From the NCBI GenBank assembly GCA_023229425.1, contig JALNZG010000006.1, forward strand, positions 117,130-181,129: a DNA stretch of 64,000 bases, written 5' to 3'. The first letter of the stretch is position 1, and every line of letters starts with the position of its first letter. The position numbers were made by a program, and so were the translations under genes. Source of the stretch: Ignavibacteriaceae bacterium. Its GTDB lineage: Bacteria; Bacteroidota; Ignavibacteria; Ignavibacteriales; Ignavibacteriaceae. This document shows, piece by piece, positions 2,836 through 34,200 of the stretch. Under the pieces are notes generated by a model. The model did no database searches. It had not been told where the DNA came from and saw only the letters and a list, made by a program, of their open reading frames with translations.

Positions 2836-4938
2836 TTATTTTAATCCCCTCTTGTCCAATAATGCATCAATCTTTGGTTCTCTTCCTCTAAACTGTTTGT
2901 ATAGAACCATAGGATCATCGCTTCCGGCTTTCTCTAAAAGATTTCTGAATGCCTTGGCAGTAGTTTTATTAAATACATCATTTTTTTCTTTGAATGCAGC
3001 AAAGGCATCCGCATCTAAAACCGCTGCCCAAACATATCCATAATACCCGGCGGCATAGCCGTCATCTGCAAAAATGTGCTGGAAATTTGTACTCTGATAG
3101 CGCGATTCAATTTCATGAATCAATCCATGTTTAGATAATGATTCCTTTTCAAATTTAGGAACATCCCGTTCATTTGTATCTGAAATGGTATGCCAATCCA
3201 TATCAAGAAGTGATGCCGCTAAATATTCAACGGTTTCAAATCCTTGATTGAACTGTCCGGCATTAACAATTTTTTTGATCAGTTCTTCCGGTATTGGTTT
3301 TCCCGTTTTATAATGCTTTGCATACATTTTTAAGACTACCGGATCAGACGCCCAATTCTCCATTACCTGAGACGGCAATTCAACAAAGTCAACCGGAACT
3401 CTTTTACCGGATGGATAAATTGAAGTTGCGATCAAATAATGAAGCGCATGACCGAACTCGTGGAATAATGTATTAACGTCATCAAAACTTAATAGCGCAG
3501 GTTTATCTTTAGTAGGTTTTGTAAAATTTCCAACGTTATAAATTACCGGGGAAATATACTTTCCTTCTATATTTGACTGGTTTGTGAATTCACTCATCCA
3601 CGCGCCGCTTCGTTTACTATCTCGCGGGAAATAATCGGTGTATAAAATGCCAAGATGTTTTCCATTTGCTTCCAGCACTTCAAAAACTTTTACATCGGGA
3701 TGATAAACCTGGATATTTTTTTTCTCAACGAATTTTAGTCCGTACAGCTTTGTAGCAACTCCAAACGCTCCGTCAACTATATTTTCAAGTTTAAAATAAG
3801 GACGAAGCATCTCACCGTCGAGAGCATATTTTTCCTTTCTAACTTTTTCAGAATAGTACCACCAATCCCATGACTGTAGCTTAAAATTTCCTTCTTCTTT
3901 GTCAATAATCTTCTGCATGTCGGCAACTTCTAATCCGGCTTTGTGTAAAGCGGGTTTCCATAAATCATTTAAGAATTTGTAAACATTTTCGGGATTCTTA
4001 GACATGTTGATCTCTAATTTAAAATCGGCATAAGTTTTATATCCCAATAAAACAGCTTTCTCAACGCGCAAAGATGCCATTTTTGTTAGAATCTTTTTTG
4101 TGTCTAATTCATTATTACTATTTCCGCGGTTTAAATAAGCTTTAAATAATTTCTCTCTCAGATTTCTTTTTTCAGAATATTGAAGGAAAGGAGTCCAGCT
4201 TGGTCTTTGCAAGGTGAAAACCCATTTGCCTTCGAGTTCTTTTCCTTTAGCGGTTTCGGCTGCGCCTTGAATTACTCCTTCGGGTAAACCGGCGAGGTCT
4301 TCTTTATTATCTATCACTAACCCAACGGCATTGGTTTCTTTCAAAATGTTTTCCGCAAACTTTACACCGAGAAGAGAGAGTTCTTCATTTATCTTTTTAA
4401 ATCTTTCTTTATCTACTTTATTAAGATTAGCTCCACCACGGACAAAATCCTTAAAATAGTTTTCAAGCACAACTTTTTGTTCTGTAGTAAGATTGAGTTT
4501 CTCTTTTTCTAGATAGATACTCTTTACCCGGTCGAAGAATTTTTCATTCAGATAAATCTCATCAAAATGTTTAGATATCATTGGTGCAGTTTTTTGAGCA
4601 ATTGCTTGAATCTCAGCATTGGTGTTCGCACCGTTTAAGGCATTAAAGACGTTATTAACCTTTGTGAAAAGCTTTCCGCTTTTTTCAAACGCTTCAACAG
4701 TGTTTTTGAAAGTCGGTTTTTCTGTGTTGTTAATTATTTCTTCAACCTCAGCCAACTGACGTTTCATCCCTTCATCATAAGCGGGCATGAAATGTTCATT
4801 TTTGATCTCGTTGAAAGGAGGTGTTCCGAATGGAGTTTTCCATTCTTGGAAAAAAGGATTGTTCATTTTATTTTTATCCGATTGCATAGTAAATGCGCAG
4901 AGTATTGTAAATAGGAAAACACTTAAAATTATTTTCAT
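2836..4938 (-). CDS. dcp: M3 family peptidyl-dipeptidase (Dcp-like), secreted
   Basis: HEFGHALH zinc motif, 700 aa, M3A-like layout, N-terminal signal peptide. Confidence 0.9.
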   Translation of the reverse strand: MKIILSVFLFTILCAFTMQSDKNKMNNPFFQEWKTPFGTPPFNEIKNEHFMPAYDEGMKRQLAEVEEIINNTEKPTFKNTVEAFEKSGKLFTKVNNVFNALNGANTNAEIQAIAQKTAPMISKHFDEIYLNEKFFDRVKSIYLEKEKLNLTTEQKVVLENYFKDFVRGGANLNKVDKERFKKINEELSLLGVKFAENILKETNAVGLVIDNKEDLAGLPEGVIQGAAETAKGKELEGKWVFTLQRPSWTPFLQYSEKRNLREKLFKAYLNRGNSNNELDTKKILTKMASLRVEKAVLLGYKTYADFKLEINMSKNPENVYKFLNDLWKPALHKAGLEVADMQKIIDKEEGNFKLQSWDWWYYSEKVRKEKYALDGEMLRPYFKLENIVDGAFGVATKLYGLKFVEKKNIQVYHPDVKVFEVLEANGKHLGILYTDYFPRDSKRSGAWMSEFTNQSNIEGKYISPVIYNVGNFTKPTKDKPALLSFDDVNTLFHEFGHALHYLIATSIYPSGKRVPVDFVELPSQVMENWASDPVVLKMYAKHYKTGKPIPEELIKKIVNAGQFNQGFETVEYLAASLLDMDWHTISDTNERDVPKFEKESLSKHGLIHEIESRYQSTNFQHIFADDGYAAGYYGYVWAAVLDADAFAAFKEKNDVFNKTTAKAFRNLLEKAGSDDPMVLYKQFRGREPKIDALLDKRGLK

Positions 4939-5096
4939 TTGAAAACTCCTTGAATATTAGCATGTATGATGTAAAAGATGAAAACTTTTGTTTATATAGT
5001 TTGCAAAAATATTGTGCGAAAAACCGTGAGAATATTTTCTTGAGTTCCGGCTCTATCATGTTATGATTTTATGAACCGGATAAGCTAAATCTTATT

Positions 5097-6416
5097 TTAA
5101 ACTTTCTGAACGATAATTCTCATTCCCTCAACTTTAATAACTTTTATTTGTGACCCTCTTTCTATAAAATCTCCGGCGGTAACTACATCGTAACGTTCAC
5201 CCTTTATTATTGCAGTTCCGGCGGGACGAAGCGTGGTAAAGGCTTCACCCGTTTCACCTAAAAGATTATAATAAGATGGATGAGAGATAAAACCATCATG
5301 CGCAGCGTTCTCGTTTGATAAAATCAATCTATTAAATGTAGTGGTCTTGGGAAGATATTTCACCAACAAGAACATAATCACGACTGAAGAAAAAACGGCT
5401 GTTCCAAGTTGAATGATTGCGGTGAAAAGGATGTTCGAATCAAAATAAAATTCTGCATTAAAAAGTGAAAAGAATATCGAGCCGATAACCAATAATATTC
5501 CGGCTATACCAGTAACTCCAAAGCCGGGGATGACAAATATTTCTACGATCAATAAAATTATTCCGATAACAAATAATAAAATTTGAAATATTGAAGCGAT
5601 CTGTAAGATGAATGACGAACCGAAAAAGAGAGCCAATGCAATAAGTGAGACAGTCCCGGCAAAACCCCAGCCGGGTGTTTTAATTTCGGTGTAAAGACCG
5701 ACCAATCCGATCATGATCAGTAAAGAAGAGACAATAGGATTATTAAGGAAGCTGACGAATTCTTCAGCCCAATTTGCTTTTGCTTCAATAATAACGGCGT
5801 TATGAATATCAAAAGCGGCTAACACTTTTGAAATGTTTTCAACTGTGGTATCGGAGATTTGATATTTTAATGCCTCTGCTGAGGTTAAAGTTACTAGCGT
5901 AGTGCTGTCGTCAACACCGAGAATTACAACCCGTTCATCAACCATCGCTTCGGCTATATCTGTTCTTCTTCCGTTTTTTTCTGCGGTGGAACGCATTTCC
6001 GAACGCATATATGATTGATATTTCTCCGATTGCTTCTGTCCCGTTTGATCAACAACCGTAGTTGCGCCGATTGAACTTCCGGGAGCCATAGCAATTTTTT
6101 TACATGACAGAGTTATTAATGCACCGGCAGAAATTGCACGGTTTTTTACAAAGGCGATTGTTAAAACTTTGCTTTCCAGAATTGCGTCTTTTATTTGTGT
6201 AGCTGCATCAACTCTACCGCCAAATGTGTTTATCTCAAAAACGATCGCTTGCGCGTTTTGAGATTCCGCATCGGAAATTACTCTTCTTACAAAAGGAGCT
6301 AATCCCAGATCAATCTCCCCTTCAATTTTTGCATGAAAAACTTTTTGCGCGCTTGTGAATGCAGATAACGTTACAAAGAGTAAACAAAAGGCATATAATA
6401 ATTTTTTCATTTTCAA
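5097..6416 (-). CDS. NfeD family membrane-bound ClpP-class serine protease
   Basis: Signal peptide, ClpP-like N-domain (NTFGGRVDAA, AISAGALI), central multi-TM block and C-terminal OB-like NfeD domain (GETGEAFTTLRPAGTAIIKGERYDVVT). Confidence 0.8.
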   Translation of the reverse strand: MKMKKLLYAFCLLFVTLSAFTSAQKVFHAKIEGEIDLGLAPFVRRVISDAESQNAQAIVFEINTFGGRVDAATQIKDAILESKVLTIAFVKNRAISAGALITLSCKKIAMAPGSSIGATTVVDQTGQKQSEKYQSYMRSEMRSTAEKNGRRTDIAEAMVDERVVILGVDDSTTLVTLTSAEALKYQISDTTVENISKVLAAFDIHNAVIIEAKANWAEEFVSFLNNPIVSSLLIMIGLVGLYTEIKTPGWGFAGTVSLIALALFFGSSFILQIASIFQILLFVIGIILLIVEIFVIPGFGVTGIAGILLVIGSIFFSLFNAEFYFDSNILFTAIIQLGTAVFSSVVIMFLLVKYLPKTTTFNRLILSNENAAHDGFISHPSYYNLLGETGEAFTTLRPAGTAIIKGERYDVVTAGDFIERGSQIKVIKVEGMRIIVQKV

Positions 6417-6712
6417 CCTGACTAAAATTCAATGTTATTTTCATTGGAAATATACAAAGAGTTCCTGAAAAAAATTTAGTGCCCCTGACAAGCATGGCGT
6501 GCTTTGTGTCTTGAAGGCAAAGTCATCTCGCCACAAAGTCACGAAAAAACGAAGGGCAGCAACAGAAGAAAAAAATATTTTTGGCTGCCAGGAGATTGTA
6601 GAATCTCATTTTCATTATATTTAGCCGTAAGAATATTTTTTATAGAAATTTAATAAACAAAGATTGTGTTAATAAAAAAGGTACTAAGGTTAAAACCAAT
6701 TAAGATAAAATT

Positions 6713-7910: not shown

Positions 7911-8022
7911 TGAAAAATAGTTTTAGTTTTATTGCACTAATTAAACAAAGAAAAAGAAGTATGGAAAAAGTTACTTGGATGGATGTTTAAGAAATAGTAC
8001 GGAACATGTAAAAAAACTTTAC
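7911..8022 (+). other. conserved leader-like element, copy 1 (paralog at 28381..28480)
   Basis: About 100 nt aligns by eye at roughly 75-80% with 28381..28480. The core GGAAAAGTYACTTGGATGGATGTTTAA is nearly identical and contains the mini-ORF ATG GAT GTT TAA. Confidence 0.6.
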
Positions 8023-8084: not shown

Positions 8085-9071
8085 ATGAATTTAAATACTC
8101 TTCTCGGAAAACGAAATGTCATCCTAATTATTTTTGCGATTTTGCTAACCATCGTATTAGCTTTTATCCACAATCTATCGACTAGTTATAGCAATAAATA
8201 TGATACTTCGTTATTGCCAAAAGACGAAAAAATTGAAAAAATATTTAAGAGTAAACCGGATACCTTAAAAGGAACTGATATCTATTATTATAAGAATGCC
8301 ATTAGTTCATTTGAATACGCTTGTGAAAATAAATCATTAAGTGAGCTTGAGGATGCAAAAAATGCTTTAACTGGGTTGTTGGATAAATTTCCAAATTCAA
8401 ACTATTTAGCTGATGCCAAGATAAAACTCAAAGAATTAATACTCTTAAAAAACAGAATTCAAAAACGCAATTCAATTAGCGAACAAATTAATGCTTATAA
8501 TAATTTGTATCAGTTTAATAATTCATTAAAACTACTTTCCAAATCCAAACAATTCTTTGACGATAGCGAATATGACGAATTAAGAAATGATATTACAAAA
8601 CAAAAACGCAATTCAATTAGCGAACAGATTAATGCTTATAATAATTTGTATCAGTTTAATAATTCATTAAAACTACTTTCCAAATCCAAACAATTCTTTG
8701 ACGATAGCGAATATGACGAATTAAGAAATGATATTATAAAACAAAGGGATAAACCTATACAAGTTAGTATAAGAGAATTAATATCTCAGTCGAGTAAATA
8801 TGATGGTAAAATAGTGGAGGTTAACGAATTGCGCGCAATAAGCAATGATATTCAAAGTAAGTTCTTTCTGACTTATAAATCAACCGGAAGTGGAAGGTTG
8901 GATTATGATACCGACTTAAGGATATTGATTTGTTATGCTAAGGCTACTAATCGGGATCAATTGATTTATTTAACTGGCGATAATTATCCTGAAATGACAG
9001 TGACCGGAAAGTTTGTTAATTTATCTCTTTTTGGTAGTAGTTACATTGATGCGAAGGAAATAAAATATTAA
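8085..9071 (+). CDS. hypothetical N-terminally membrane-anchored protein with internal 47-aa tandem duplication
   Basis: TM helix VILIIFAILLTIVLAFI. QKRNSISEQINAYNNLYQFNNSLKLLSKSKQFFDDSEYDELRNDI(T/I)K occurs twice back to back. Confidence 0.6.
   Translation: MNLNTLLGKRNVILIIFAILLTIVLAFIHNLSTSYSNKYDTSLLPKDEKIEKIFKSKPDTLKGTDIYYYKNAISSFEYACENKSLSELEDAKNALTGLLDKFPNSNYLADAKIKLKELILLKNRIQKRNSISEQINAYNNLYQFNNSLKLLSKSKQFFDDSEYDELRNDITKQKRNSISEQINAYNNLYQFNNSLKLLSKSKQFFDDSEYDELRNDIIKQRDKPIQVSIRELISQSSKYDGKIVEVNELRAISNDIQSKFFLTYKSTGSGRLDYDTDLRILICYAKATNRDQLIYLTGDNYPEMTVTGKFVNLSLFGSSYIDAKEIKY
8460..8741 (+). repeat. 2 x 141-bp in-frame tandem duplication
   Basis: Unit 8460-8600 is repeated at 8601-8741 with two mismatches (caa/cag synonymous; aca/ata T->I). 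Confidence 0.95.
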
Positions 9072-22398: not shown

Positions 22399-22502
22399 TT
22401 TTATTGATCCTCTACGATGTTTTAATTTTGACCTCGTAGAGGTCATATTATTGTAAAAACCAAAGCACTCACAAGGAGTAATCCTCGTAGAGGATTTATA
22501 AA
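22399..22502. repeat. REP-like hairpin array, left copy
   Basis: TTTTGACCTCGTAGAGGTCATATTATTGTAAA (22426-22457) and TAATCCTCGTAGAGGATTTATAAA (22479-22502) are repeated exactly at 23140-23171 and 23195-23218. The cores are CCTC-GTA-GAGG palindromes. Confidence 0.9.
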
Positions 22503-22523: not shown

Positions 22524-23000
22524 TTAATCAAAAAAATCAAACAAATATTTTTCATCATAAGCTATCTCAAACTTTTTAAGCAGTTCCGTATATTCCTGTC
22601 GGAAGGTTCTTTTTGTATGATGAATTTCTTGTTTAGCTATATAATTGTAAATAGTATCTAATTGGGATTTGCCGTATGAGAAAGCTCCATACCCCTCTTG
22701 CCAATGAAATTTTCCTCTGAACCAATCCTTCTGGTTTATAAATGTAGATGAATCCCTTTTTATACACGCTACAAGATCTGATATTTTATCATTGGGATTT
22801 AATCCTAATAATATATGAATATGATCTGGCATTCCGTTTATTATAAGGGATTTATGTTTTCTGTTTGTTATTATCCCGCTGATATAGCTGAATACTTCTC
22901 CTCTGATCTCCTTCCTTAATAATCGCTCCCGATACTTTACCGCAAATACCAAATGAGTATAGAGTTGTGTAAATGCGCCTGGTTTCATATTAAGCTCCAT
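22524..23000 (-). CDS. IS200/IS605-family Y1 (HUH) transposase, RAYT-like
   Basis: HUH motif MPDHIHILL. C-terminal WQEGYGAFSYGKSQLDTIYNYIAKQEIHH carries the catalytic-Tyr YIxxQ context. 158 aa. Confidence 0.85.
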   Translation of the reverse strand: MELNMKPGAFTQLYTHLVFAVKYRERLLRKEIRGEVFSYISGIITNRKHKSLIINGMPDHIHILLGLNPNDKISDLVACIKRDSSTFINQKDWFRGKFHWQEGYGAFSYGKSQLDTIYNYIAKQEIHHTKRTFRQEYTELLKKFEIAYDEKYLFDFFD

Positions 23001-23226
23001 TTTATTGATCCTCTACGAGGATCAATTCTTTAAGATTACACGTTATTACCATAATTAAACATCTACGATGTTTTAACACATGTTCAATTCGTTTTTGTTG
23101 TTGTGTTCCATCTTCTATCATTATAATTCCGTACTGTAATTTTTGACCTCGTAGAGGTCATATTATTGTAAACAATAACTCTCTCGAAATATTTAATCCT
23201 CGTAGAGGATTTATAAATCATAGTAT
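23001..23226. repeat. REP-like hairpin array, right copy
   Basis: TTGATCCTC-TAC-GAGGATCAA (23005-23025), AACATC-TAC-GATGTT (23059-23073), GACCTC-GTA-GAGGTC (23145-23159), ATCCTC-GTA-GAGGAT (23197-23211). Confidence 0.9.
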
Positions 23227-27467: not shown

Positions 27468-27520
27468 CTCCTAATTCCTAATTCTCACCGTGTCCGCCTC
27501 TGGCGGAATTCCTAATTCTA
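27468..27520 (-). repeat. composite 3' element: heptamers plus TCCGCC-TCT-GGCGGA mini-hairpin plus heptamers, embedding the stop of 27518..27892
   Basis: ctcctaattcctaattctc (27468-86), hairpin at 27493-27507, aattcctaattcta (27507-20). Confidence 0.75.
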
Positions 27521-27892
27521 CAAAATGTATTTGCCGATCAACTTGCTAAAAGCCACAATATCAAATCCACCGGTAATGTCAAAGTGTATTGGACCAATTG
27601 AGCTTACGAAAATTTCAAGTTCACAATCCAAATCAATTAAGCCGGCAGTTTCAACTGAAAAAGTTTGGATTCGGCTGTATGGGATTGAAGTAAAGTCAAT
27701 TTTCTTCCCGGTTATTCCTTGCACATTTGCCGCTATTATTCGTTTGTCGGTAAAGACGAGCTGATCTCTTACCGTTTTAAAAGCAGCAAAAACATTTTCA
27801 TCATCAAGAAACATTTTGTGCATAATGTCGATGATCTCTTCAATCTTAATTGGTTTCAACTTAAGGAACGTAGCATTTTTGAAATCTATCAT
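27518..27892 (-). CDS. bacterial PH domain protein (YokE-like)
   Basis: LVFTDKRIIAANVQGITGKKIDFTSIPYSRIQTFSVETAG...ELEIF matches the bPH/YokE-like pattern. Confidence 0.6.
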   Translation of the reverse strand: MIDFKNATFLKLKPIKIEEIIDIMHKMFLDDENVFAAFKTVRDQLVFTDKRIIAANVQGITGKKIDFTSIPYSRIQTFSVETAGLIDLDCELEIFVSSIGPIHFDITGGFDIVAFSKLIGKYIL

Positions 27893-28116
27893 AACAAATC
27901 TCCTTTGTTCTAAAATCTCTCACTATTTTGAGTGCAATATAATAATCCTCCGTGATAATTGAATTCCAATTTGGCACACACTTCAAAGGTAACTGAACGC
28001 TCGTCACGCATCAGCGTGATTGCCTGCGATGGAAATAATAATCGCCAAACATAGGAAGCCGTTAAGACTGCTCAGTTTCAATTATCTAAACAAATAGAAC
28101 GACAATAATTAAGAAT

Positions 28117-28209
28117 GAGTTATTGTTCATCCTAAAAAATCACTCAACAATTTCAAAAGACGGAAAGCTGAACTTTGGCAGGACGAAAAAGATGATCTTA
28201 ACGAAATAA
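28117..28209 (+). pseudogene. orphan T9SS CTD tail fragment (no start, no N-terminal half)
   Basis: Translates to ELLFILKNHSTISKDGKLNFGRTKKMILTK*. This is homologous to the last strands of the intact CTDs in this window. An in-frame stop lies at 28087. Confidence 0.6.
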
Positions 28210-28380
28210 TGTTTCGAGAAGTTCTATTCCATCAGCCCCCTTCGCCTTTATTCCTTTCTAATGATAAGCACAAAGAGATTTTGTGAGCAGCACGAATGTA
28301 AAGTTGAACAGAAAACCAGAAGTTGGGAAGGCAGAAGTGAAAGTTGACATAGAATATATTTTTAAATTATCTTGATTTTA

Positions 28381-28480
28381 GAGTAAATTAGTTTTAGGTT
28401 AATACTATAAATTAGACAAGGAAAATAACTTAGGGAAAAGTCACTTGGATGGATGTTTAATAATTGGTATAAAAAAACTT
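28381..28480 (+). other. conserved leader-like element, copy 2 (paralog of 7911..8022)
   Basis: Same core GGAAAAGTCACTTGGATGGATGTTTAA. Located about 100 nt upstream of the ATG at 28542. Confidence 0.6.
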
Positions 28481-28541
28481 CTAAAGAGATTCTACCCTCT
28501 TTCATGTTATTCTATTATTGTAAATCAAGAACGAAAAACAA

Positions 28542-29927
28542 ATGGAATTTATTGAAGGGCAAACGCTCAATAATATTATCGGAAAAGAGGTAGGTCCCAT
28601 TCCCTACGAAAAAGTGCTCCCTCTCTTTACCCAAATTCTTGAAGAGATCAGTTACGCTCATCGGCAAGGGGTTGTTCACCCCGATCTTAATCCAATTAAC
28701 ATTATCCTTACTCCGGAAAACAAAATAAAAATAACCGATTCCGGTATTACCGGTAAAAAGAGTCAAACCCAAACACCAAAAACCGGCACAAAGAGGGGGA
28801 CACTTTTTTATAAATCACTCGAGCAACTTCGGGGTGAAAATGTTGATAAGCAATCCGATATTTACAGTTTGGGAATTATCCTTTATGAAATGCTTGCCGG
28901 AAGATTGCCATTCGATAAGTATGAAAAGATGAGCGATTTTACGCTGATGAACAAAATTGTTAGCGAAAAACTAGACGATCCTCGAGAATTTTATCCTCAC
29001 ATACCCGAATGGCTTGTAAACATAATTCATAAAGCTACAGCAAAGGAAAAATCCGAAAGGATAAAAACTGCCGATTCTTTTATCTCATTATTAAAAACCG
29101 GAAAAGAGACTTTTGAGAAGCAAGTTCAAGAAGAGCTTGAAAAAGAGAAACGACTCCGTAAAGAAAGAGAAGATTCTGAAAAGAAAGCTCAAGAAAAAAT
29201 TTTAACAGTAAGGCAACTGAAAAGAGAAAAAGAAATAACAAGACCAACTGAACAAGAGCCCTCGATAAAAGAGCCAAACAAAGGGAAAGCGAAAAGCATT
29301 AAAGGAAGGAAGAAGAAAATCGTAGTTATTCTTTATTTAGTTTTTTGGATAGCAGTAGCATCGGCGTCTTTTTTGATTATTTATGATAATAAAACTATAG
29401 ACAGCGAATGGATGACTGAAAACCTAAATATTGCCTATTACAGAAATGGGGATTCGATTCCTGAAGTAACAGACCCGAAAAAATGGGCAAAGTTAAAAAC
29501 CGGCGCTTGGTGTTATTATGATAATGAGCCGGAGAATGGTAAGGAATATGGAAAGTTATATAATTGGTATGCAGTAAATGACCCGAGAGGATTAGCCCCG
29601 GAAGGATGGCATATACCGACGATTGAAGAATTAACAAAAGCAGTAAATAATGATGGTGATGCATTAAAAGCGATGGGATATGGAAGCGGCAAAAACACAA
29701 GCGGCTTCTCTGCATTGCTCGCGGGCTACCGCGACAGCGTTGGTTACTTTTACGATTTGGGTTACGTCCCTTACTTTTGGAGTTCTACGGAGTACGATAC
29801 AGTGAGCGCATACGATTTGGTTCTGCCCTACCACGACAGCAATGTCACTTTGTCACATAACAGTAAGGCTTACGGCTTTAGTGTTCGCTACCTTAAAGAT
29901 AAAAAGAAGCTGGTACTTATACAATAA
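28542..29927 (+). CDS. N-lobe-less Ser/Thr pseudokinase - coiled-coil - TM - FISUMP (Fibrobacter succinogenes major paralogous) domain protein
   Basis: Starts at the kinase hinge (MEFIEGQTL). Catalytic loop is HPDLNPIN (canonical HRDLKPxN), DSG replaces DFG, and SLE replaces APE. The C-lobe block DIYSLGIILYEMLAGRLPF is conserved. Then a K/E-rich linker, TM IVVILYLVFWIAVASASFLII, and FISUMP (WMTENLN...YGKLYNWYA...GWHIPT...NTSGFSALLAGYR...FWSST...YGFSVRYLKD). Confidence 0.75.
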   Translation: MEFIEGQTLNNIIGKEVGPIPYEKVLPLFTQILEEISYAHRQGVVHPDLNPINIILTPENKIKITDSGITGKKSQTQTPKTGTKRGTLFYKSLEQLRGENVDKQSDIYSLGIILYEMLAGRLPFDKYEKMSDFTLMNKIVSEKLDDPREFYPHIPEWLVNIIHKATAKEKSERIKTADSFISLLKTGKETFEKQVQEELEKEKRLRKEREDSEKKAQEKILTVRQLKREKEITRPTEQEPSIKEPNKGKAKSIKGRKKKIVVILYLVFWIAVASASFLIIYDNKTIDSEWMTENLNIAYYRNGDSIPEVTDPKKWAKLKTGAWCYYDNEPENGKEYGKLYNWYAVNDPRGLAPEGWHIPTIEELTKAVNNDGDALKAMGYGSGKNTSGFSALLAGYRDSVGYFYDLGYVPYFWSSTEYDTVSAYDLVLPYHDSNVTLSHNSKAYGFSVRYLKDKKKLVLIQ

Positions 29928-29934
29928 ATTTTAG

Positions 29935-30039
29935 CGCAGAAGACTTTCTTCGGGAGTTTATTTGTACAGCATTAATGCAGTGTCGGTGGATGGGAAACAG
30001 AATTTTAGAGCAACTAAAAAAATGATAGTTCTAAAATAG
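29935..30039 (+). pseudogene. orphan T9SS CTD tail fragment
   Basis: Translates to RRRLSSGVYLYSINAVSVDGKQNFRATKKMIVLK*. Preceded by an in-frame TAG at 29932. Shares the exact 21-mer TTTAGAGCAACTAAAAAAATG with 30861-30881. Confidence 0.65.
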
Positions 30040-30085
30040 AATTAAAACAAACAGAAACGGTATAAGCGAATCAATCCTAGGAGTT

Positions 30086-30821: not shown

Positions 30822-30896
30822 GATTTGTTCATCCAAGTGTTGTTAGATGGAAAGGGAAAGTTTAGAGCAACTAAAAAAATGTTGTTGATGAAATAA
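30822..30896 (+). pseudogene. orphan T9SS CTD tail fragment
   Basis: Translates to DLFIQVLLDGKGKFRATKKMLLMK*. Preceded by an in-frame TAG at 30819. Confidence 0.65.
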
Positions 30897-30916
30897 AAAT
30901 TCAGACAAGGTGTTTT

Positions 30917-33217
30917 ATGCGAATAAAAAAAAAGATACGGATAATGTTAACGGTGGTGTGTATTTGCACATTGCAATTAACCTCACAAACCGTTACTGGT
31001 AAATTAGTTGACCAAAACGGTAGTGGTTTAGCGGGCATACAGTTAGAACTTTATATTAATCCAAAAGTATATAACGCAACTTCTTCTTCAGATGGATCAT
31101 TTATTTTTAATGATATTACTTATGTGCAAAAAGATGAACTGCTCCCAACCGGGTATTCGGTCTCAGATAATTATCCAAACCCATTCAATCCTAAAACGAG
31201 GATTGGAATAACATTACCCAACAGTGGAAGTGTTAGAATTAGTTTGTATAATTTTCTTGGACAATCTGTTCTAGCAGAGCTTGAAAGATATTATAGCGCG
31301 GGAACAAATTTTGTCGATTTAGAACTGAACGGATTACCGAATGGTGTTTACTTTGCTAGAGTAACACTAGATGGAAAATATACAGTTACAAAGAAATTGA
31401 TGCTCATCTATGGCAGTCAGCATCTGCCTTCTTCAATAAACCTCCCAAATATTCAACTTAACAAATCCACAATTACAAATAGTTTAACATTGGAGACAAA
31501 TCTTGATAGTCTTGTAGCTACCAGCACTATCACGGGAAGAAAAACTTTTAAGAATTTGCCAAGCATCGTGAGTAGTTCATTAAATTTAGGGAATTTTACT
31601 ATTGAAAGATTTTGTCTTGGTCTGCCAACGGTAACATATGAGGACAAAACATATAATACTGTGCAGATAGGTGCTCAATGCTGGTTAAAAGAAAATCTTA
31701 ATGTCGGAACTATGATAAATAGTTATAATTCGGCCGATTCTATGAGAAATAATGGCATAATTGAGAAATATTGTTTTAGGAATGATACTGCAAACTGTAG
31801 TAAATATGGAGGCTTGTACCAATGGGATGAAGCATTGACGTATAATGGGACAGAAAAAGTTCAAGGGATATGTCCAAGCGGTTGGCGTATCCCCACAAAA
31901 TCAGAGGGTGAAACGTTAAAGGCATCTGTGAACAATGATGGCAACGCATTAAAAGAAGTAGGAGAGGGAACGGGGAGCGGAATTGGCACCAACACCAGTG
32001 GCTTCTCGGCATTGCTCTCTGGCCACCGCTCTTCATATGGTTTTTTCGAATTTTTGGCAACCTCCACTAGATTTTGGAGTTCTACTAAGTATAGTACAAC
32101 AGCTGCCTTCTTTATGGCCTTGTCTAGCGATATCAATGCCACCTCCTTCAACGATGTAAATAAGTCATACGGTTTCAGTATTCGTTGCTTAAAAGATGAA
32201 AACACTATTAAAATAGGCAGTCTGAAAGACCAAACGATTTCCATGAACTCGCAATTTGGTCCGTACAAGATTTTAATGAGTCATGTAAAGTCACCTCTTG
32301 ATAGTATTGAAATATTTGCCGCTTCATCTAATTGGGAATTGGTAGACACAAATTCCATTGTACTGACCAAAACTAAAGATGAAATTACTCTAACCGTATT
32401 ACCGAGTCTTGGAAAATATGGCGTGACAGAAATATCTTTGGTTGTTCAAGACAAAGAGAACAGAGACTCCGCTAGTTTTAATTTGACCGTTGTTGCAAGC
32501 AATGCAAATTTATCTTATCCAACCATCTTGAGAAAATTGGATGAAACCGAAATGACAATTAGACAGAACGAATTGACCCAAATGCTCGGAACAAAATATA
32601 TTGCAACACTTGATTCGTTTGGTCTTATAGGGCATCTAGGAATGTTGAGTAGAGGGCGGTCGAGCATAACTACAGCCGATCAAGCTATTTCGGTCGCAAA
32701 AAATGCATTATTACATTTTAAAGATTTTACAAATGTTGCTGATACTTCGTTGTTGACCGTTCACGAGGCAACAAATTACAACCCTTTCCCAACGAATAAT
32801 TCAGATTGGACTGTCGATTTTGATAATCAGTCGTATAATAATCTTGAAGTGTGGCGAACCAACATTCTTTTGCTTATCAACGATGTAAAAATCTCTATGG
32901 ACTGGCATCATTACAAAGACATTTTTATTCCTAAAGTTGATTTGATCAGTAAAGAAAGAGCAAAAAGAGAATTAGTCGGAAAAGAAATCTCATATTATTG
33001 CTGGGGACCAACCAAATTTACGATGACCGAAGAATCCATTAATATTGATAGTTTGTCATTAAGTATTTACCCTTTAAGTAAAAATGATGTGATAGAGTTT
33101 CGGGCAGTTTGGAAGGTTCCTATTTATGAATCATCAAGCCAATTTCCAAGTTGGTATTATTTCATAGATGTTTTGACTGGTGAGATAGTTGGAACTGAGC
33201 AGTTGTTTATTTGTTAA
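30917..33217 (+). CDS. multidomain secreted protein: CarboxypepD_reg-like - internal T9SS CTD-like domain - FISUMP - unknown region with PepSY-like C-terminus
   Basis: Signal peptide and TGKLVDQNGSGLAGIQLEL. The internal CTD is NYPNPFNPKTRIGITLP...GVYFARVTLDGKYTVTKKLMLI at aa ~84-165. FISUMP is YNTVQIGAQCWLKENL...YGGLYQW...GWRIPT...NTSGFSALLSGHR...FWSST...YGFSIRCLKD. The C-terminus reads ...WYYFIDVLTGEIVG. Confidence 0.75.
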   Translation: MRIKKKIRIMLTVVCICTLQLTSQTVTGKLVDQNGSGLAGIQLELYINPKVYNATSSSDGSFIFNDITYVQKDELLPTGYSVSDNYPNPFNPKTRIGITLPNSGSVRISLYNFLGQSVLAELERYYSAGTNFVDLELNGLPNGVYFARVTLDGKYTVTKKLMLIYGSQHLPSSINLPNIQLNKSTITNSLTLETNLDSLVATSTITGRKTFKNLPSIVSSSLNLGNFTIERFCLGLPTVTYEDKTYNTVQIGAQCWLKENLNVGTMINSYNSADSMRNNGIIEKYCFRNDTANCSKYGGLYQWDEALTYNGTEKVQGICPSGWRIPTKSEGETLKASVNNDGNALKEVGEGTGSGIGTNTSGFSALLSGHRSSYGFFEFLATSTRFWSSTKYSTTAAFFMALSSDINATSFNDVNKSYGFSIRCLKDENTIKIGSLKDQTISMNSQFGPYKILMSHVKSPLDSIEIFAASSNWELVDTNSIVLTKTKDEITLTVLPSLGKYGVTEISLVVQDKENRDSASFNLTVVASNANLSYPTILRKLDETEMTIRQNELTQMLGTKYIATLDSFGLIGHLGMLSRGRSSITTADQAISVAKNALLHFKDFTNVADTSLLTVHEATNYNPFPTNNSDWTVDFDNQSYNNLEVWRTNILLLINDVKISMDWHHYKDIFIPKVDLISKERAKRELVGKEISYYCWGPTKFTMTEESINIDSLSLSIYPLSKNDVIEFRAVWKVPIYESSSQFPSWYYFIDVLTGEIVGTEQLFIC

Positions 33218-33245: not shown

Positions 33246-33914
33246 ATGAAAAATGTAATTTATTTTATTCTTGTTTCACTTCTTGTGTTTACATCATGCA
33301 AGAAAGATGCAAGCAATCCTCTATCTCCAATAGACACTTCGCAAACAGTTACGTACTCTGGGAAAGTGTACCACACAGTAAAAATTGGTAATCAAACTTG
33401 GCTTAAAGAAAACTTGGATGTCGGTGTGATGATTGATAGTATGCAAAACCCAAGCAATAACGGAGTAATTGAAAAATACTGTTATGGTAATGACACAGCA
33501 AATTGTACTAAGTACGGTGGATTATATCAATGGAGTGAAGCAATGGCTTATGACACCGCAAACGGTACAAAAGGCATCTGTCCAACTGGATGGCACATAT
33601 CAACGACGGCAGAATTTGATACATTAGCGGCAGCGGTGTATAATAATAGCAACTCACTAAAAGCAGTTGGGCAAGGAGATTCGCAATATGGAGGAGCTGG
33701 CACAAACTCGAGCGGTTTCTCTGCCTTGTTAGCGGGCTACCGCTCCTATAGTGGTAACTTCTTCAATTTAGGAAACGTCACTCTCTTTTGGAGTTCTACA
33801 AAGGACCCTGGAACGTACGCCTACAACATGTACATGTGGGACAGTGGTAGCATTATCAGCATTGGCCTTGGGTTCAAGGTGTACGGTTTGAGTATTCGTT
33901 GCATAAAGGATTAA
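33246..33914 (+). CDS. FISUMP domain lipoprotein
   Basis: The ATG at 33246 gives MKNVIYFILVSLLVFTSCKKD (lipobox), preferred over the listed start at 33189. A full FISUMP domain ends in YGLSIRCIKD*. Confidence 0.8.
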   Translation: MKNVIYFILVSLLVFTSCKKDASNPLSPIDTSQTVTYSGKVYHTVKIGNQTWLKENLDVGVMIDSMQNPSNNGVIEKYCYGNDTANCTKYGGLYQWSEAMAYDTANGTKGICPTGWHISTTAEFDTLAAAVYNNSNSLKAVGQGDSQYGGAGTNSSGFSALLAGYRSYSGNFFNLGNVTLFWSSTKDPGTYAYNMYMWDSGSIISIGLGFKVYGLSIRCIKD

Positions 33915-34200
33915 AATGAAAATTAACGGATTTTGTGTAACATACGATTTGACAAGTCGAAATTATGACCAGTAATTGCATGAGATTCAATTAAGAATTA
34001 ACTAAACACCCTGTAATTGTTATGAGTAAAAAGAACAATTCGAATGCAGTACTATTAATATCGTTAATGTTTCTTGTCCTAAATTGAAAGTTAAAACCAT
34101 AGAGTTTTGTGCAATCTAAAAAGATGATAGTTTTAAAGTAAGCAGCATCATAAACAGGAACCAGAAAATCGAAACATACATTTTCGCAAGACCATCGGGA

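Follow-up and report, generated by a model that had tools for sequence, protein, structure and literature searches.

Our data suggest that the C-terminal half of one FISUMP domain in this Ignavibacteriaceae DNA is a fixed former variable region (VR) of the kind rewritten by diversity-generating retroelements (DGRs), with at least one probable remote DGR target next to it. Taken as a whole we regard this as the best explanation and a reasonably likely one. The window, i.e. the whole 64-kb stretch analysed, contains three FISUMP genes, each with a segment homologous to VRs (VR1, VR2 and VR3). A sequence-only reading had singled out VR1 for its base and codon composition. The features discussed below are:

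28542..29927, +, gene 1: 461 aa, kinase-like C-lobe without N-lobe, K/E-rich linker, predicted TM helix and FISUMP domain
28542..29069, +, kinase-like domain of gene 1, C-lobe only (Pfam match and orthologue alignment)
29319..29384, +, predicted single TM helix IVVILYLVFWIAVASASFLIIY (from reading the translation)
29406..29897, +, FISUMP (Fib_succ_major, C-type-lectin-like) domain of gene 1 (profile matches)
29709..29897, +, VR1, the flagged segment: 189 nt, codon-for-codon homologous to DGR template repeats, with codon skew from about 29690
29938..29950, +, weak AT-rich hairpin GAAGA-CTT-TCTTC, unlike the GC-rich hairpins after confirmed VRs
30917..33217, +, paralogue 2: 766 aa (30944 as start according to the gene caller), with a T9SS sorting domain close to its N-terminus
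31661..32194, +, internal FISUMP domain of paralogue 2 (profile matches)
32006..32194, +, VR2, VR-homologous segment of paralogue 2, with moderate codon skew
33246..33914, +, paralogue 3: 222 aa, probable lipoprotein with little beyond its FISUMP domain (33378-33908)
33720..33908, +, VR3, VR-homologous segment of paralogue 3, with strong C3 and GC3 skew

Gene 1 and its codon switch

All three genes belong to the FISUMP family (PF09603, TIGR02145), scoring 99.5-125.8 bits against Pfam (cut-off 33.9) and 83.5-135 bits against TIGR02145 (cut-off 41.65). Gene 1 is a member of a small, conserved Ignavibacteria family of ~460-aa FISUMP membrane proteins that are kinase-like and N-lobe-less. Its Fib_succ_major match spans aa 289-452 (E = 3.2e-36), while the Pkinase match at aa 1-176 covers only profile positions 77-254 of 263, and a full-length STK-FISUMP relative (L090) aligns with it from L090 residue 89 on. 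The start MEF... is common to 15 orthologues, all 15 of which share the N-lobe truncation, and upstream of the gene there are stops in all frames and no coding sequence. The kinase motifs, as read from the sequence, are degenerate, with HRD replaced by HPD (HPD..N) and DFG by DSG. A complete Hanks-type Ser/Thr kinase domain (N-lobe, ATP-binding Lys, HRD, DFG) is thus not present in gene 1, and the domain is probably a pseudokinase; since the N-lobe is missing and HRD/DFG are degenerate in all 15 orthologues, phosphotransfer by the protein is doubtful.

Codon usage in gene 1 switches at about 29690. The composition figures of the sequence-only reading were reproduced: 36.7% A and 40% GC at 29401-29520 versus 19.2% A and 51.7% GC at 29721-29840, all 10 Tyr codons past 29700 being TAC against a TAT:TAC ratio of 13:4 in the 5' part of the gene, and low A contents of 20.6% and 21.7% in the paralogue segments. 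When the amino-acid sequence was held fixed and the expectation was taken from the codon usage of the window's own 39 ORFs, the A depletion of the flagged segment proved to be mostly an effect of amino-acid composition (0.21 observed, 0.24 expected, z = -2). Composition does not account for the synonymous skew, C3 being 0.43 versus 0.20 expected (z = 4.9) and GC3 0.60 versus 0.32 (z = 5.1), whereas the N-terminal half of the same domain has normal codon usage (z about -1 to 0). In a 60-codon sliding scan of all 39 ORFs (2837 steps), GC3 excess peaked in two FISUMP domains, those of gene 1 and paralogue 3, in the C-terminal half of each. The skew had been thought weaker in both paralogues than in the flagged segment, which is right for paralogue 2 only (C3 z = 3.0) and wrong for paralogue 3 (C3 z = 4.7, GC3 z = 5.1). 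Selection for translational accuracy, with TAC preferred at conserved Tyr, is rejected because the invariant Tyr residues of the N-terminal half mostly use TAT.

Nor can the skew be explained as a trait of the protein family. In a tblastn-based survey of 81 loci, the median GC3 z of the 105 FISUMP C-terminal halves scored was 0.4 and only 12% exceeded 3.5, so a family-intrinsic origin is rejected. The highest values are enriched in DGR-adjacent domains (7.5 in L071, 6.4 in L013, 5.9 in L045), and it is this concentration that marks the composition as a DGR-type signature. GC-biased conversion as a general trait of multi-copy FISUMP arrays is likewise unsupported, since the arrays at L050 (11 copies) and L026 lack the skew.

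Kinship with DGR template repeats

Relatives of the window genes occur in complete DGR cassettes made up of target, bAvd, template repeat (TR) and reverse transcriptase (RT), with TR/VR mismatches restricted to adenines. At L090, L091 and L092, where the RT carries IGNLTSQ...YVDD motifs, four VR alleles depart from the TR at 34-39 of its 68 adenines but at just one of the remaining 127 positions. At L045, L017 and L066 the TR/VR pairs are 192-193 nt long and the mismatches fall on TR adenines in 27/27, 29/30 and 37/43 cases. A partial 'TR' at the end of L004 with apparent non-A mismatches was set aside, the VR of L004 having a single non-A mismatch to the L090 TR; that copy probably arose from chimeric assembly of VR and TR, with similar artefacts in L091 and L092.

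VR1 is homologous, codon for codon, to bona fide TRs of these related Ignavibacteriaceae DGRs, which bears out the DGR-VR-like nature first proposed from composition. VRs of the relatives begin at most ~30 nt upstream of a GFS motif and extend to the gene end; in gene 1 the onset of the skew adjoins the GFS motif, so that its extent agrees with theirs. Like them, VR1 lies at the 3' end of its ORF, in a C-type-lectin fold, and is rich in NNC codons. It differs from the L090 TR at 32 of 68 TR adenines and 28 of 127 non-A positions, and from the L110 TR at 26 of 118 non-A positions (21-22% non-A mismatches for the two TRs). At the TR non-A positions its identity to the L090 TR is 78-79%, compared with 0.76 to the nearest orthologue, and distant orthologues score 0.53-0.59; at scaffold third positions the match to this TR is 0.67, versus 0.28-0.43 for distant orthologues. 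The last 27 nt of VR1 differ from the end of the L090 TR at 5 positions, and VR1 has a 10-codon tail after the usual KD end and a Tyr in place of a conserved Cys. Across the three window segments non-A mismatches to the L090 and L110 TRs amount to 17-36%, too many for either to be the template of VR1, VR2 or VR3.

Searches for DGR parts covered 75.5 kb (contig positions 1-75501) of one MAG contig together with the strain locus L085. As had been stated, RT, Avd and TR are all missing from the 64-kb window (blastn at word size 7, repeat search and YxDD scan all came out empty), and the added flanks (10 kb upstream and 2.1 kb downstream) have no DGR parts either. In the 75.5 kb and L085, phmmer with L090 RT and Avd queries (E <= 1) gave no DGR RT or Avd, and adenine-tolerant and AAY-rich scans gave no template candidates. 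No cognate TR for VR1 was found there, the best non-paralogous candidate having at least 57 non-A mismatches of 189, and the 75.5 kb contain no cognate TR or RT for VR3. A scan of metagenomes with the 'type B' scaffold (see below) returned VR alleles and a different DGR (L110), and no type B template. The three segments differ from each other at 27-33% of scaffold positions and, as the sequence-only reading had it, are not VRs of one TR. With no cognate TR for any of them, we infer DGR authorship rather than demonstrate it.

A constant segment beside two variable ones

The further suggestion that the flagged segment is a diversifying VR did not survive comparison with orthologues. Its 'variable' residues are conserved across 15 of them (53-99% identity), among them D398, G401, F403, D405, Y408, V409, P410, Y411, W413 and S414. 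In the second strain (L085) there are 2 differences in ~200 nt, one at 66 TR-A-homologous positions and one at 123 others. TR-A-homologous positions show no excess of differences against L096 (0.21 versus 0.24 elsewhere) or L005 (0.27 versus 0.47), and over all orthologues their differences (0.06-0.39) stay below those at scaffold third positions in 15/15 pairs. Variation confined to TR-adenine-templated positions was thus not found for VR1 in strain L085 or the orthologues. The 3' end is atypical as well: the short hairpin that the sequence-only reading had pointed to near 29900-29960 does exist, but it is weak, and VR1 has neither an IMH-like 3' end nor a downstream GC-rich hairpin, whereas confirmed targets carry hairpins such as GTCCC-GTAA-GGGAC, AAGGGGC-GTAA-GCCCCTT and ATCCGCC-TAA-GGCGGAT.

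It is more difficult to explain why the skew is still there. Relative to the deeper orthologues, synonymous sites of gene 1 are nearly saturated, so that a DGR footprint of great age would be expected to have faded, as happened in L005, L100 and L099 (GC3 z = -0.9 to 0.8). The window copy is undiminished (z = 4.9), and this persistence implies that something maintained or renewed the skew in its lineage.

The two neighbours behave differently, and the ranking of the three genes in the sequence-only reading is accordingly reversed: only VR2 and VR3 show evidence pointing to DGR-like diversification. Between strains, VR3 differs at 55% of TR-A-homologous positions versus 18% elsewhere (p = 2e-5), and its changed codons are NNC in both alleles in 14 of 33 cases versus 0 of 32 in the N-terminal half (p = 2e-5). 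Its scaffold appears to be held by a template: at scaffold third positions VR3 differs by 0.15-0.18 from four 'type B' VRs (VR2 of L085, L107, L108 and L114), while the adjoining N-terminal halves differ by 0.40-0.48, and synonymous divergence of type B scaffolds is 2.5-7 times below that of the adjoining N-terminal half. Compared with its own positional orthologue in L085 the VR3 scaffold is not spared (0.31 versus 0.35), and no downstream hairpin of VR3 was detectable. On these allele patterns VR3 is probably a DGR-written segment with a remote template, and the best candidate for one in the window. In VR2 the corresponding figures are 59% of TR-A-homologous positions versus 19% elsewhere (codon positions 1-2, p = 5e-6) and 10 of 35 versus 1 of 38 changed codons (p = 0.002), which points, less clearly than for VR3, to re-randomisation in the DGR manner between strains. 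It should be noted that divergence between strains exceeds that of the flanks along all of paralogue 3 and throughout the paralogue 2 FISUMP domain (identity returns to 95-100% right after the paralogue 3 stop codon), hence recombinational allelic replacement contributes. Positive selection on binding residues could also inflate the differences at TR-A-homologous positions of VR2 and VR3.

We therefore propose the following course of events. The flagged segment codes for the C-terminal half of a FISUMP domain, the part that would bind ligands, and is homologous to the ~190-nt VR that DGRs rewrite in related FISUMP proteins; its NNC-rich, all-TAC pattern would be the footprint of the DGR template/VR sequence family. 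Ordinary purifying selection may now keep its 'variable' residues as a conserved, Tyr-rich binding surface, the copy being no longer diversified. In paralogue 3 clearly, and in paralogue 2 less clearly, the homologous segment would have been re-randomised between strains in the adenine-templated manner of a DGR. This would imply a DGR at another place in the genome that works in trans, either at present or until recently in this lineage. We infer that VR1 was once DGR-written or else took over its codons from DGR-type sequences through conversion, and that this genome has, or once had, a remote DGR.

Alternatives and known systems

The main proposal of the sequence-only reading, that a DGR located somewhere else in the genome is diversifying VR1 from a distance, now looks very improbable. 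The codon signature does appear fresh, remote targets are documented (PMC5758913), a same-family DGR in related Ignavibacteriaceae adjoins a kinase-FISUMP gene, and VR3 suggests a working DGR in the lineage. Against this stand the constancy of the 'variable' residues in 15 orthologues down to 53% identity, the lack of a TR-A-homologous excess against L096 or L005 and the mere 2 nt that differ in L085. Synonymous divergence of the VR1 scaffold is higher than that of the N-terminal half, the opposite of what resetting from a template would give. Moreover, VR1 was assembled cleanly within a 169-kb contig, while active relatives sit on contigs of at most 1.6 kb, and the missing GC-rich hairpin, the 10-codon C-terminal extension and the Cys-to-Tyr change also speak against current activity.

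A variant of our preferred explanation concerns when and how the signature of VR1 arose: the codon pattern might be recent, brought in by patchy gene conversion (DNA-level or cDNA-mediated) from DGR-type sequences of the same genome, with VR2, VR3 or an unseen TR as donors; selection on the binding residues would restrict conversion to patches of scaffold. We hold this possible, though doubtful. Some strings of VR1 recur unchanged in its neighbours but not in its orthologues, namely GCATTGCTC in VR2 and GCGGGCTACCGC in VR3, and several window-specific derived states match the TR: AAG GCT (coding for Ala, against Gly in every orthologue), the terminal GAT, GCG GGC, ACG and TTG. Window-derived changes go toward G/C in 10 of 14 cases versus 4 of 12 in L096, the same-codon fraction against L096 is 0.62 in the C-terminal half and 0.83 in the N-terminal half, and the skew falls stepwise along the orthologues. 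However, the polarised changes (14 derived in the window lineage, 12 in that of L096) are too few to prove conversion, the derived states match DGR-type sequences in 12/14 versus 9/12 cases (Fisher exact test, p = 0.63), no tract is statistically demonstrated, and the multi-copy arrays at L050 and L026 are unskewed. A bolder idea, which we consider rather unlikely, sees in VR1 a domesticated DGR-derived region that gives a conserved family of pseudokinase-type membrane receptors its fixed sensor surface and, in this lineage, still exchanges scaffold with the genome's DGR template/VR pool; patchy conversion or non-diversifying homing would then keep its codons 'fresh' and its binding residues constant. 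If true, DGR-linked sequence homogenisation would be possible without diversification.

An account that dispenses with DGRs altogether makes the C-terminal half a compositional mosaic, produced by recombination with an orthologue of a GC-richer donor or by local selection on codon usage, and takes the paralogue differences for ordinary diversifying selection and recombination among surface-protein alleles. The amino-acid sequence of VR1 is indeed orthologue-like, and no template was found in the 75.5 kb and L085. Identity between strains is 98.4% for the gene 1 region and 84-94% for the flanks, which indicates recent exchange at the locus, and replacement of a whole domain or gene is visible in paralogues 2 and 3. 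Still, we find this account improbable. The skew within the family is concentrated in DGR-adjacent domains, and the agreement of VR1 with a bona fide TR at synonymous scaffold positions is far above the values for distant orthologues. Changed codons in VR3 and VR2 keep their third-position C in both alleles and type B scaffolds diverge so little at synonymous sites, neither of which is predicted by selection or by a GC-rich donor, and the TAT codons of the N-terminal half argue against selection for accuracy.

That the FISUMP fold is among those targeted by DGRs, in line with the sequence-only reading, is documented: VRs of the CLec2 type (category 'd') sit in DUF1566/DUF823/Fib_succ_major domains, with Legionella LdtA as an example (Wu et al. 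2018, PMC5758913). Like these targets, the window genes belong to PF09603, have the VR in the C-terminal ~190 nt with NNC-rich codons, and share the scaffold G.R...G.F..LG....FWSST....A..L.L.........K..GFSVRC.KD.; related Ignavibacteriaceae/Bacteroidota members of the type have complete cassettes with adenine-only mismatches. Unlike them, the window has no TR, RT or Avd within 75.5 kb, and VR1 is invariant, carries the post-KD extension of 10 codons and Tyr for Cys, and lacks the GC-rich hairpin. A DGR-targeted FISUMP with a remote target is an already known kind of system. Remote DGR targets are known, among them seven in Treponema denticola, and distances of more than 100 kb are on record (PMC5758913). 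Paralogue 3, possibly also paralogue 2, resembles them in that its variation follows the DGR pattern although the nearest tens of kb contain no DGR; such targets are defined by a TR elsewhere in the same genome with A-to-N differences only, and paralogue 3 is a candidate by its allele pattern.

The results underscore that a DGR-like compositional fingerprint alone is insufficient to call a diversifying VR. It was the comparison with orthologues and a second strain that separated a frozen VR from a neighbour plausibly still being rewritten, and VR1 may serve as an Ignavibacteriota example of a fixed VR that retains the DGR-type codon pattern. The approach can be used where no template is at hand: the adenine map of a related TR is laid over the segment, and the differences at those positions are compared with synonymous divergence of the scaffold and with the adjoining half of the domain. 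VR2 and VR3 further indicate that a DGR with FISUMP genes as targets probably acts, or acted, in trans in this lineage.

As for the kinase module, kinase-containing (STK-type) DGR variable proteins are known from cyanobacteria, together with DGR-less paralogues that retain remnant TR-VR homology and have no RT nearby (Vallota-Eastman et al. 2020, PMC7517822). Gene 1 similarly fuses a Ser/Thr-kinase-type module to a C-type-lectin-like VR domain with no RT nearby; it differs in coming from Ignavibacteriota, in having FISUMP as its VR domain, and in the lost N-lobe and degenerate HRD/DFG of its kinase module. Related Ignavibacteriaceae DGR loci are themselves linked to STK and PP2C signalling genes, L090 carrying a full STK-FISUMP gene and a PP2C phosphatase.

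The synonymous skew at the 3′ end of gene 1

The window sequence is also part of contig k141_480210 (169 kb) of ENA ERZ27247322, with NCBI protein MCK9426031.1. The FISUMP (Pfam Fib_succ_major) genes and the parts of gene 1 are:

28542–29927, gene 1, 461 aa, with the flagged segment (VR1, 29709–29897) at its 3′ end
gene 1, aa 1–176, Pfam protein-kinase match covering only profile positions 77–254 of 263
gene 1, then a K/E-rich linker and a hydrophobic stretch read as one transmembrane helix
gene 1, aa 289–452, Pfam Fib_succ_major (FISUMP) domain, E = 3.2e-36
30917–33217, paralogue 2, downstream of gene 1, FISUMP domain 31661–32194 (VR2, 32006–32194)
33246–33914, paralogue 3, downstream of paralogue 2, FISUMP domain 33378–33908 (VR3, 33720–33908)

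The sequence-only reading had described VR1 as an A-depleted, NNC-rich segment resembling a variable region (VR) of a diversity-generating retroelement (DGR), and all its composition and codon counts were reproduced. When the amino-acid sequence is fixed and synonymous codons are drawn from the window's own usage, the low A content turns out to be mostly compositional (0.21 observed versus 0.24 expected), but the synonymous skew is real: C3 is 0.43 versus 0.20 expected (z = 4.9) and GC3 is 0.60 versus 0.32 (z = 5.1). The skew has no amino-acid-composition explanation. Codon usage is normal in the N-half of the domain and in the remainder of gene 1, and the skew sets in at ∼29690, near the GFSALLAG motif and just 5′ of the point where homology between template repeat (TR) and VR starts in confirmed DGR cassettes. 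Among 2837 sliding 60-codon windows from 39 ORFs the GC3 excess is strongest in the C-halves of the gene 1 FISUMP domain and of paralogue 3. Skew had been thought weaker in both paralogues; this holds for paralogue 2 (C3 z = 3.0) but not for paralogue 3, which equals VR1 (z = 4.7 and 5.1).

A codon preference intrinsic to the family, which had been named among the observations that would together speak against a DGR, is ruled out. Over 105 FISUMP domains, each scored against the codon usage of its own locus, the median GC3 z of the C-half is 0.4 and only 12% exceed 3.5, while the top ranks are enriched for DGR-adjacent domains (L071 7.5, L013 6.4, L045 5.9, L066 3.7). Several domains with high values have, like that of the window, no DGR within 10 kb.

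Gene 1 belongs to a family of ∼460-aa Ignavibacteria proteins (15 members, 53–99% identity), all of which share the MEF... start and miss the kinase N-lobe; 5′ of gene 1 there is no open frame, stop codons being present in all three frames. Its kinase motifs (28686–28700, 28728–28736) are degenerate, with HPDLNPIN for HRDLKPxN and DSG for DFG, and the catalytic Asp is lost altogether in other orthologues (LRALNP). The degenerate motifs and the absent N-lobe point to a family of pseudokinases. Paralogue 2 has an odd architecture, as its T9SS C-terminal sorting domain (Por_Secre_tail) is not C-terminal but lies at aa 86–162 of the 766-aa ORF, followed by the FISUMP domain and then by ∼340 further residues; it could have originated by gene fusion.

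Working DGRs in related loci

A search for FISUMP-domain proteins returned several short lipoproteins (P0009, P0010, P0011, P0016) with identical N-halves and with differences confined to scattered sites in the last ∼65 residues; on their contigs a gene for the accessory protein bAvd lies 3′ of the target. Tracing one Avd (P0127, present in 58 sample blocks; NCBI MGD1008261.1 in an Ignavibacteriaceae MAG) led to the complete cassettes L090, L091 and L092, in the order FISUMP target, bAvd, TR, reverse transcriptase (RT), PP2C phosphatase, M48 peptidase and Ser/Thr kinase–FISUMP. The RT has 389 aa and the motifs LPIGNLTSQ...YVDD, and the TR of L090 (1090–1284) encodes SALLAGNRNNNGNFNNLGNNTNFWSSTENNTNDAYNLNLNNNDSNINLNNNNKADGFSVRCVKD. 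Four VR alleles mismatch this TR at 34–39 of its 68 adenines and at 1 of the 127 other positions. Judged from its sequence, the L090-type cassette is a working DGR. Three further FISUMP genes with RT, Avd and a TR of 192–193 nt were found among 80 loci of GTDB genomes, and of the mismatches between TR and VR, 27 of 27, 29 of 30 and 37 of 43 lie at TR adenines. The stated relation of FISUMP to the C-type-lectin-like folds used by DGRs is borne out by published lists of CLec2-type targets, which already include Fib_succ_major; remote targets are documented as well (PMC5758913, PMC4159848).

The PP2C, M48 and kinase–FISUMP genes lie directly 3′ of the RT in L090 (ENA ERZ27254249, 1–5978), L091 and L092. 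The kinase–FISUMP fusion, full-length in its kinase part, is the last gene, and the contigs end inside its FISUMP domain, the second of the cassette, as expected if this TR has another VR there. RT-less versions with an identical Avd (L086–L089, L093, L094; for example L086 10346–11010) carry, in place of the TR, a VR-like 'diversified' copy with a terminal stop codon, followed by small ORFs, SIR2, RNase H and IS21 genes, and could be decayed or rearranged DGRs.

In a codon alignment almost every AAY codon of the TR stands opposite an NNY codon in VR1, and many scaffold codons are the same, synonymous choice included (GCG GGC, GGT, TTT TGG AGT TCT ACG GAG, GCA TAC, TTG, CTG, AGC, AAG GCT, GTT CGC). 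At the non-A positions of the TR, VR1 is 78–79% identical to it, and distant gene 1 orthologues 53–59%. What was flagged is a genuine footprint of the DGR family, and the fold that carries it is a known DGR target.

A fixed region in gene 1

No RT or Avd homologue, adenine-tolerant template candidate or AAY-rich stretch was found in the window, as had been stated for RT, Avd and TR, nor in the same search with 10 kb upstream and 2.1 kb downstream added (contig positions 1–75501). VR1, VR2 and VR3 have no second copies in the window except one another (60–64% identity). As templates for VR1, the TRs of L090 and of L110, a second DGR from a metagenome scan, were rejected, since 28 of 127 and 26 of 118 non-A positions mismatch.

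Of the proposed VR-like signature the footprint stands, but diversification does not: the segment is conserved in 15 orthologues, and a second strain of the locus, L085 (JGI 3300038439), differs by only 2 nt within the VR1 span (15 differences in the whole gene, 5 of them non-synonymous). The FISUMP C-half is among the best-conserved parts of the family, and positions hypervariable in DGR targets are invariant there (D398, G401, F403, D405, Y408, V409, P410, Y411, W413, S414). With the adenines of the L090 TR as a map of templated positions, orthologue differences are not enriched at these positions (0.21 versus 0.24 elsewhere for L096, 0.27 versus 0.47 for L005), while confirmed DGR alleles differ at 0.58–0.64 of adenine positions and 0.00 of others. 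Nor is there a template reset: in almost every orthologue pair the scaffold third positions have diverged at least as fast as the N-half. In confirmed targets a GC-rich short-loop stem lies 20–45 nt past the VR; such a hairpin is absent after VR1, where the AT-rich one at 29938–29950 is indeed weak. VR1 also has a 10-codon tail beyond the usual KD end, and a conserved Cys is replaced by Tyr. These comparisons indicate that VR1 is a fixed, conserved surface, presumably for binding, and not a diversifying one. Kinase-linked DGR variable proteins and DGR-less paralogues have already been described, and for the latter it was suggested that the components for diversification were removed once an optimal variant had been selected (PMC7517822). 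The block 27478–30024 (bPH gene, intergenic region, gene 1) is 98.4% identical to L085 1592–4138, with flanks at 84–94%, which suggests that this block alone was recently exchanged by recombination or swept.

Because synonymous sites are near saturation between the window gene 1 and its deeper orthologues, an ancestral DGR footprint is expected to have decayed, and in distant orthologues it has. The C-half GC3 z is 4.9 in the window, 4.5 in L085, 2.6 in L096, 1.2 in L098, 0.8 in both L099 and L100 and –0.9 in L005, and Tyr TAC:TAT is 9:0 in the window and 1:7 in L100. Relative to L096, synonymous change is greater in the C-half (same-codon fraction 0.62 versus 0.83 in the N-half). Several window-specific derived states of VR1 match the TR or VR2/VR3 (AAG GCT, GCG GGC, GCATTGCTC, GCGGGCTACCGC), and 10 of 14 derived changes go toward G/C versus 4 of 12 in L096; the excess of DGR-type derived states (12 of 14 versus 9 of 12) is not significant (p = 0.63). 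The pattern is as would be expected from patchy conversion by DGR-type sequences of the same genome, with counts too small for proof. In the lineage of the window VR1 keeps its codon pattern at full strength without being diversified.

Paralogues 2 and 3

The stronger case for retroelement-driven change is paralogue 3, possibly also paralogue 2, rather than VR1. Between the window and L085 their FISUMP parts are much more diverged than the surroundings. In paralogue 3 the differences per site at codon positions 1, 2 and 3 are 0.37, 0.32 and 0.32 in the C-half and 0.16, 0.12 and 0.34 in the N-half, and identity is back to 95–100% right after the stop codon. Among codons changed at position 1 or 2, third-position C is present in both alleles in 14 of 33 C-half versus 0 of 32 N-half codons of paralogue 3 (p = 2e-5), and in 10 of 35 versus 1 of 38 in paralogue 2 (p = 0.002). 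At adenine-homologous positions (L090 TR map, codon positions 1–2) differences reach 55% in VR3 and 59% in VR2, the level of independent active-DGR alleles, versus 18–19% outside them (p about 1e-5).

A scan of JGI metagenomes with the scaffold common to the window VR3 and the L085 VR2 yielded additional alleles of this type B set (L106–L109, L111, L114, L115), as well as the second DGR, L110, together with the VRs that belong to it (L112, L113). Within the set third-position differences are 0.05–0.18 in the scaffold versus 0.35–0.50 in the adjoining N-half, and adenine-homologous positions differ by 0.38–0.53. Low synonymous divergence of the scaffold together with randomised adenine positions is predicted if the segment is copied again and again from a template that evolves slowly; selection alone makes no prediction of this pattern. 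The window VR3 falls within the set, and the window VR2 and the L085 VR3 fall outside, their scaffolds having diverged as much as the N-halves. Both paralogues also clearly show replacement of the entire gene or domain. No hairpin lies downstream of VR3, and the type B template was found neither in the metagenome scan nor at contig positions 1–75501. The template and RT acting on paralogue 3, possibly on 2, would be located elsewhere or have been lost. The VR of L085 paralogue 2 (4201–6465) shares its scaffold with that of window paralogue 3 (87% identity), not with its positional orthologue, which suggests either a template common to the two genes or a shuffling of their VR segments.

Several repeats were also noticed. 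An element of ∼40–63 nt, with copies 75–78% identical at 29979–30041, 30836–30898 and 34101–34140, sits 19–61 nt 5′ of the start codons of genes 30086, 30917 and 34201, and could serve as a common promoter or leader. Between genes, a 71-nt repeat with copies 73% identical occurs at 7929–7999 and, just 5′ of gene 1, at 28399–28469; the latter copy is found in L085 too. A 77-nt pair (22426–22502 and 23141–23217, 84% identical), each copy holding two short palindromes, GACCTCGTAGAGGTC and AATCCTCGTAGAGGATT, flanks a 102-aa Y1_Tnp gene (22524–22832, minus strand; IS200/IS605-type or REP-associated tyrosine transposase). At 8460–8741 a 141-nt tandem duplication, 99% identical and in perfect register, lies within a coding region.
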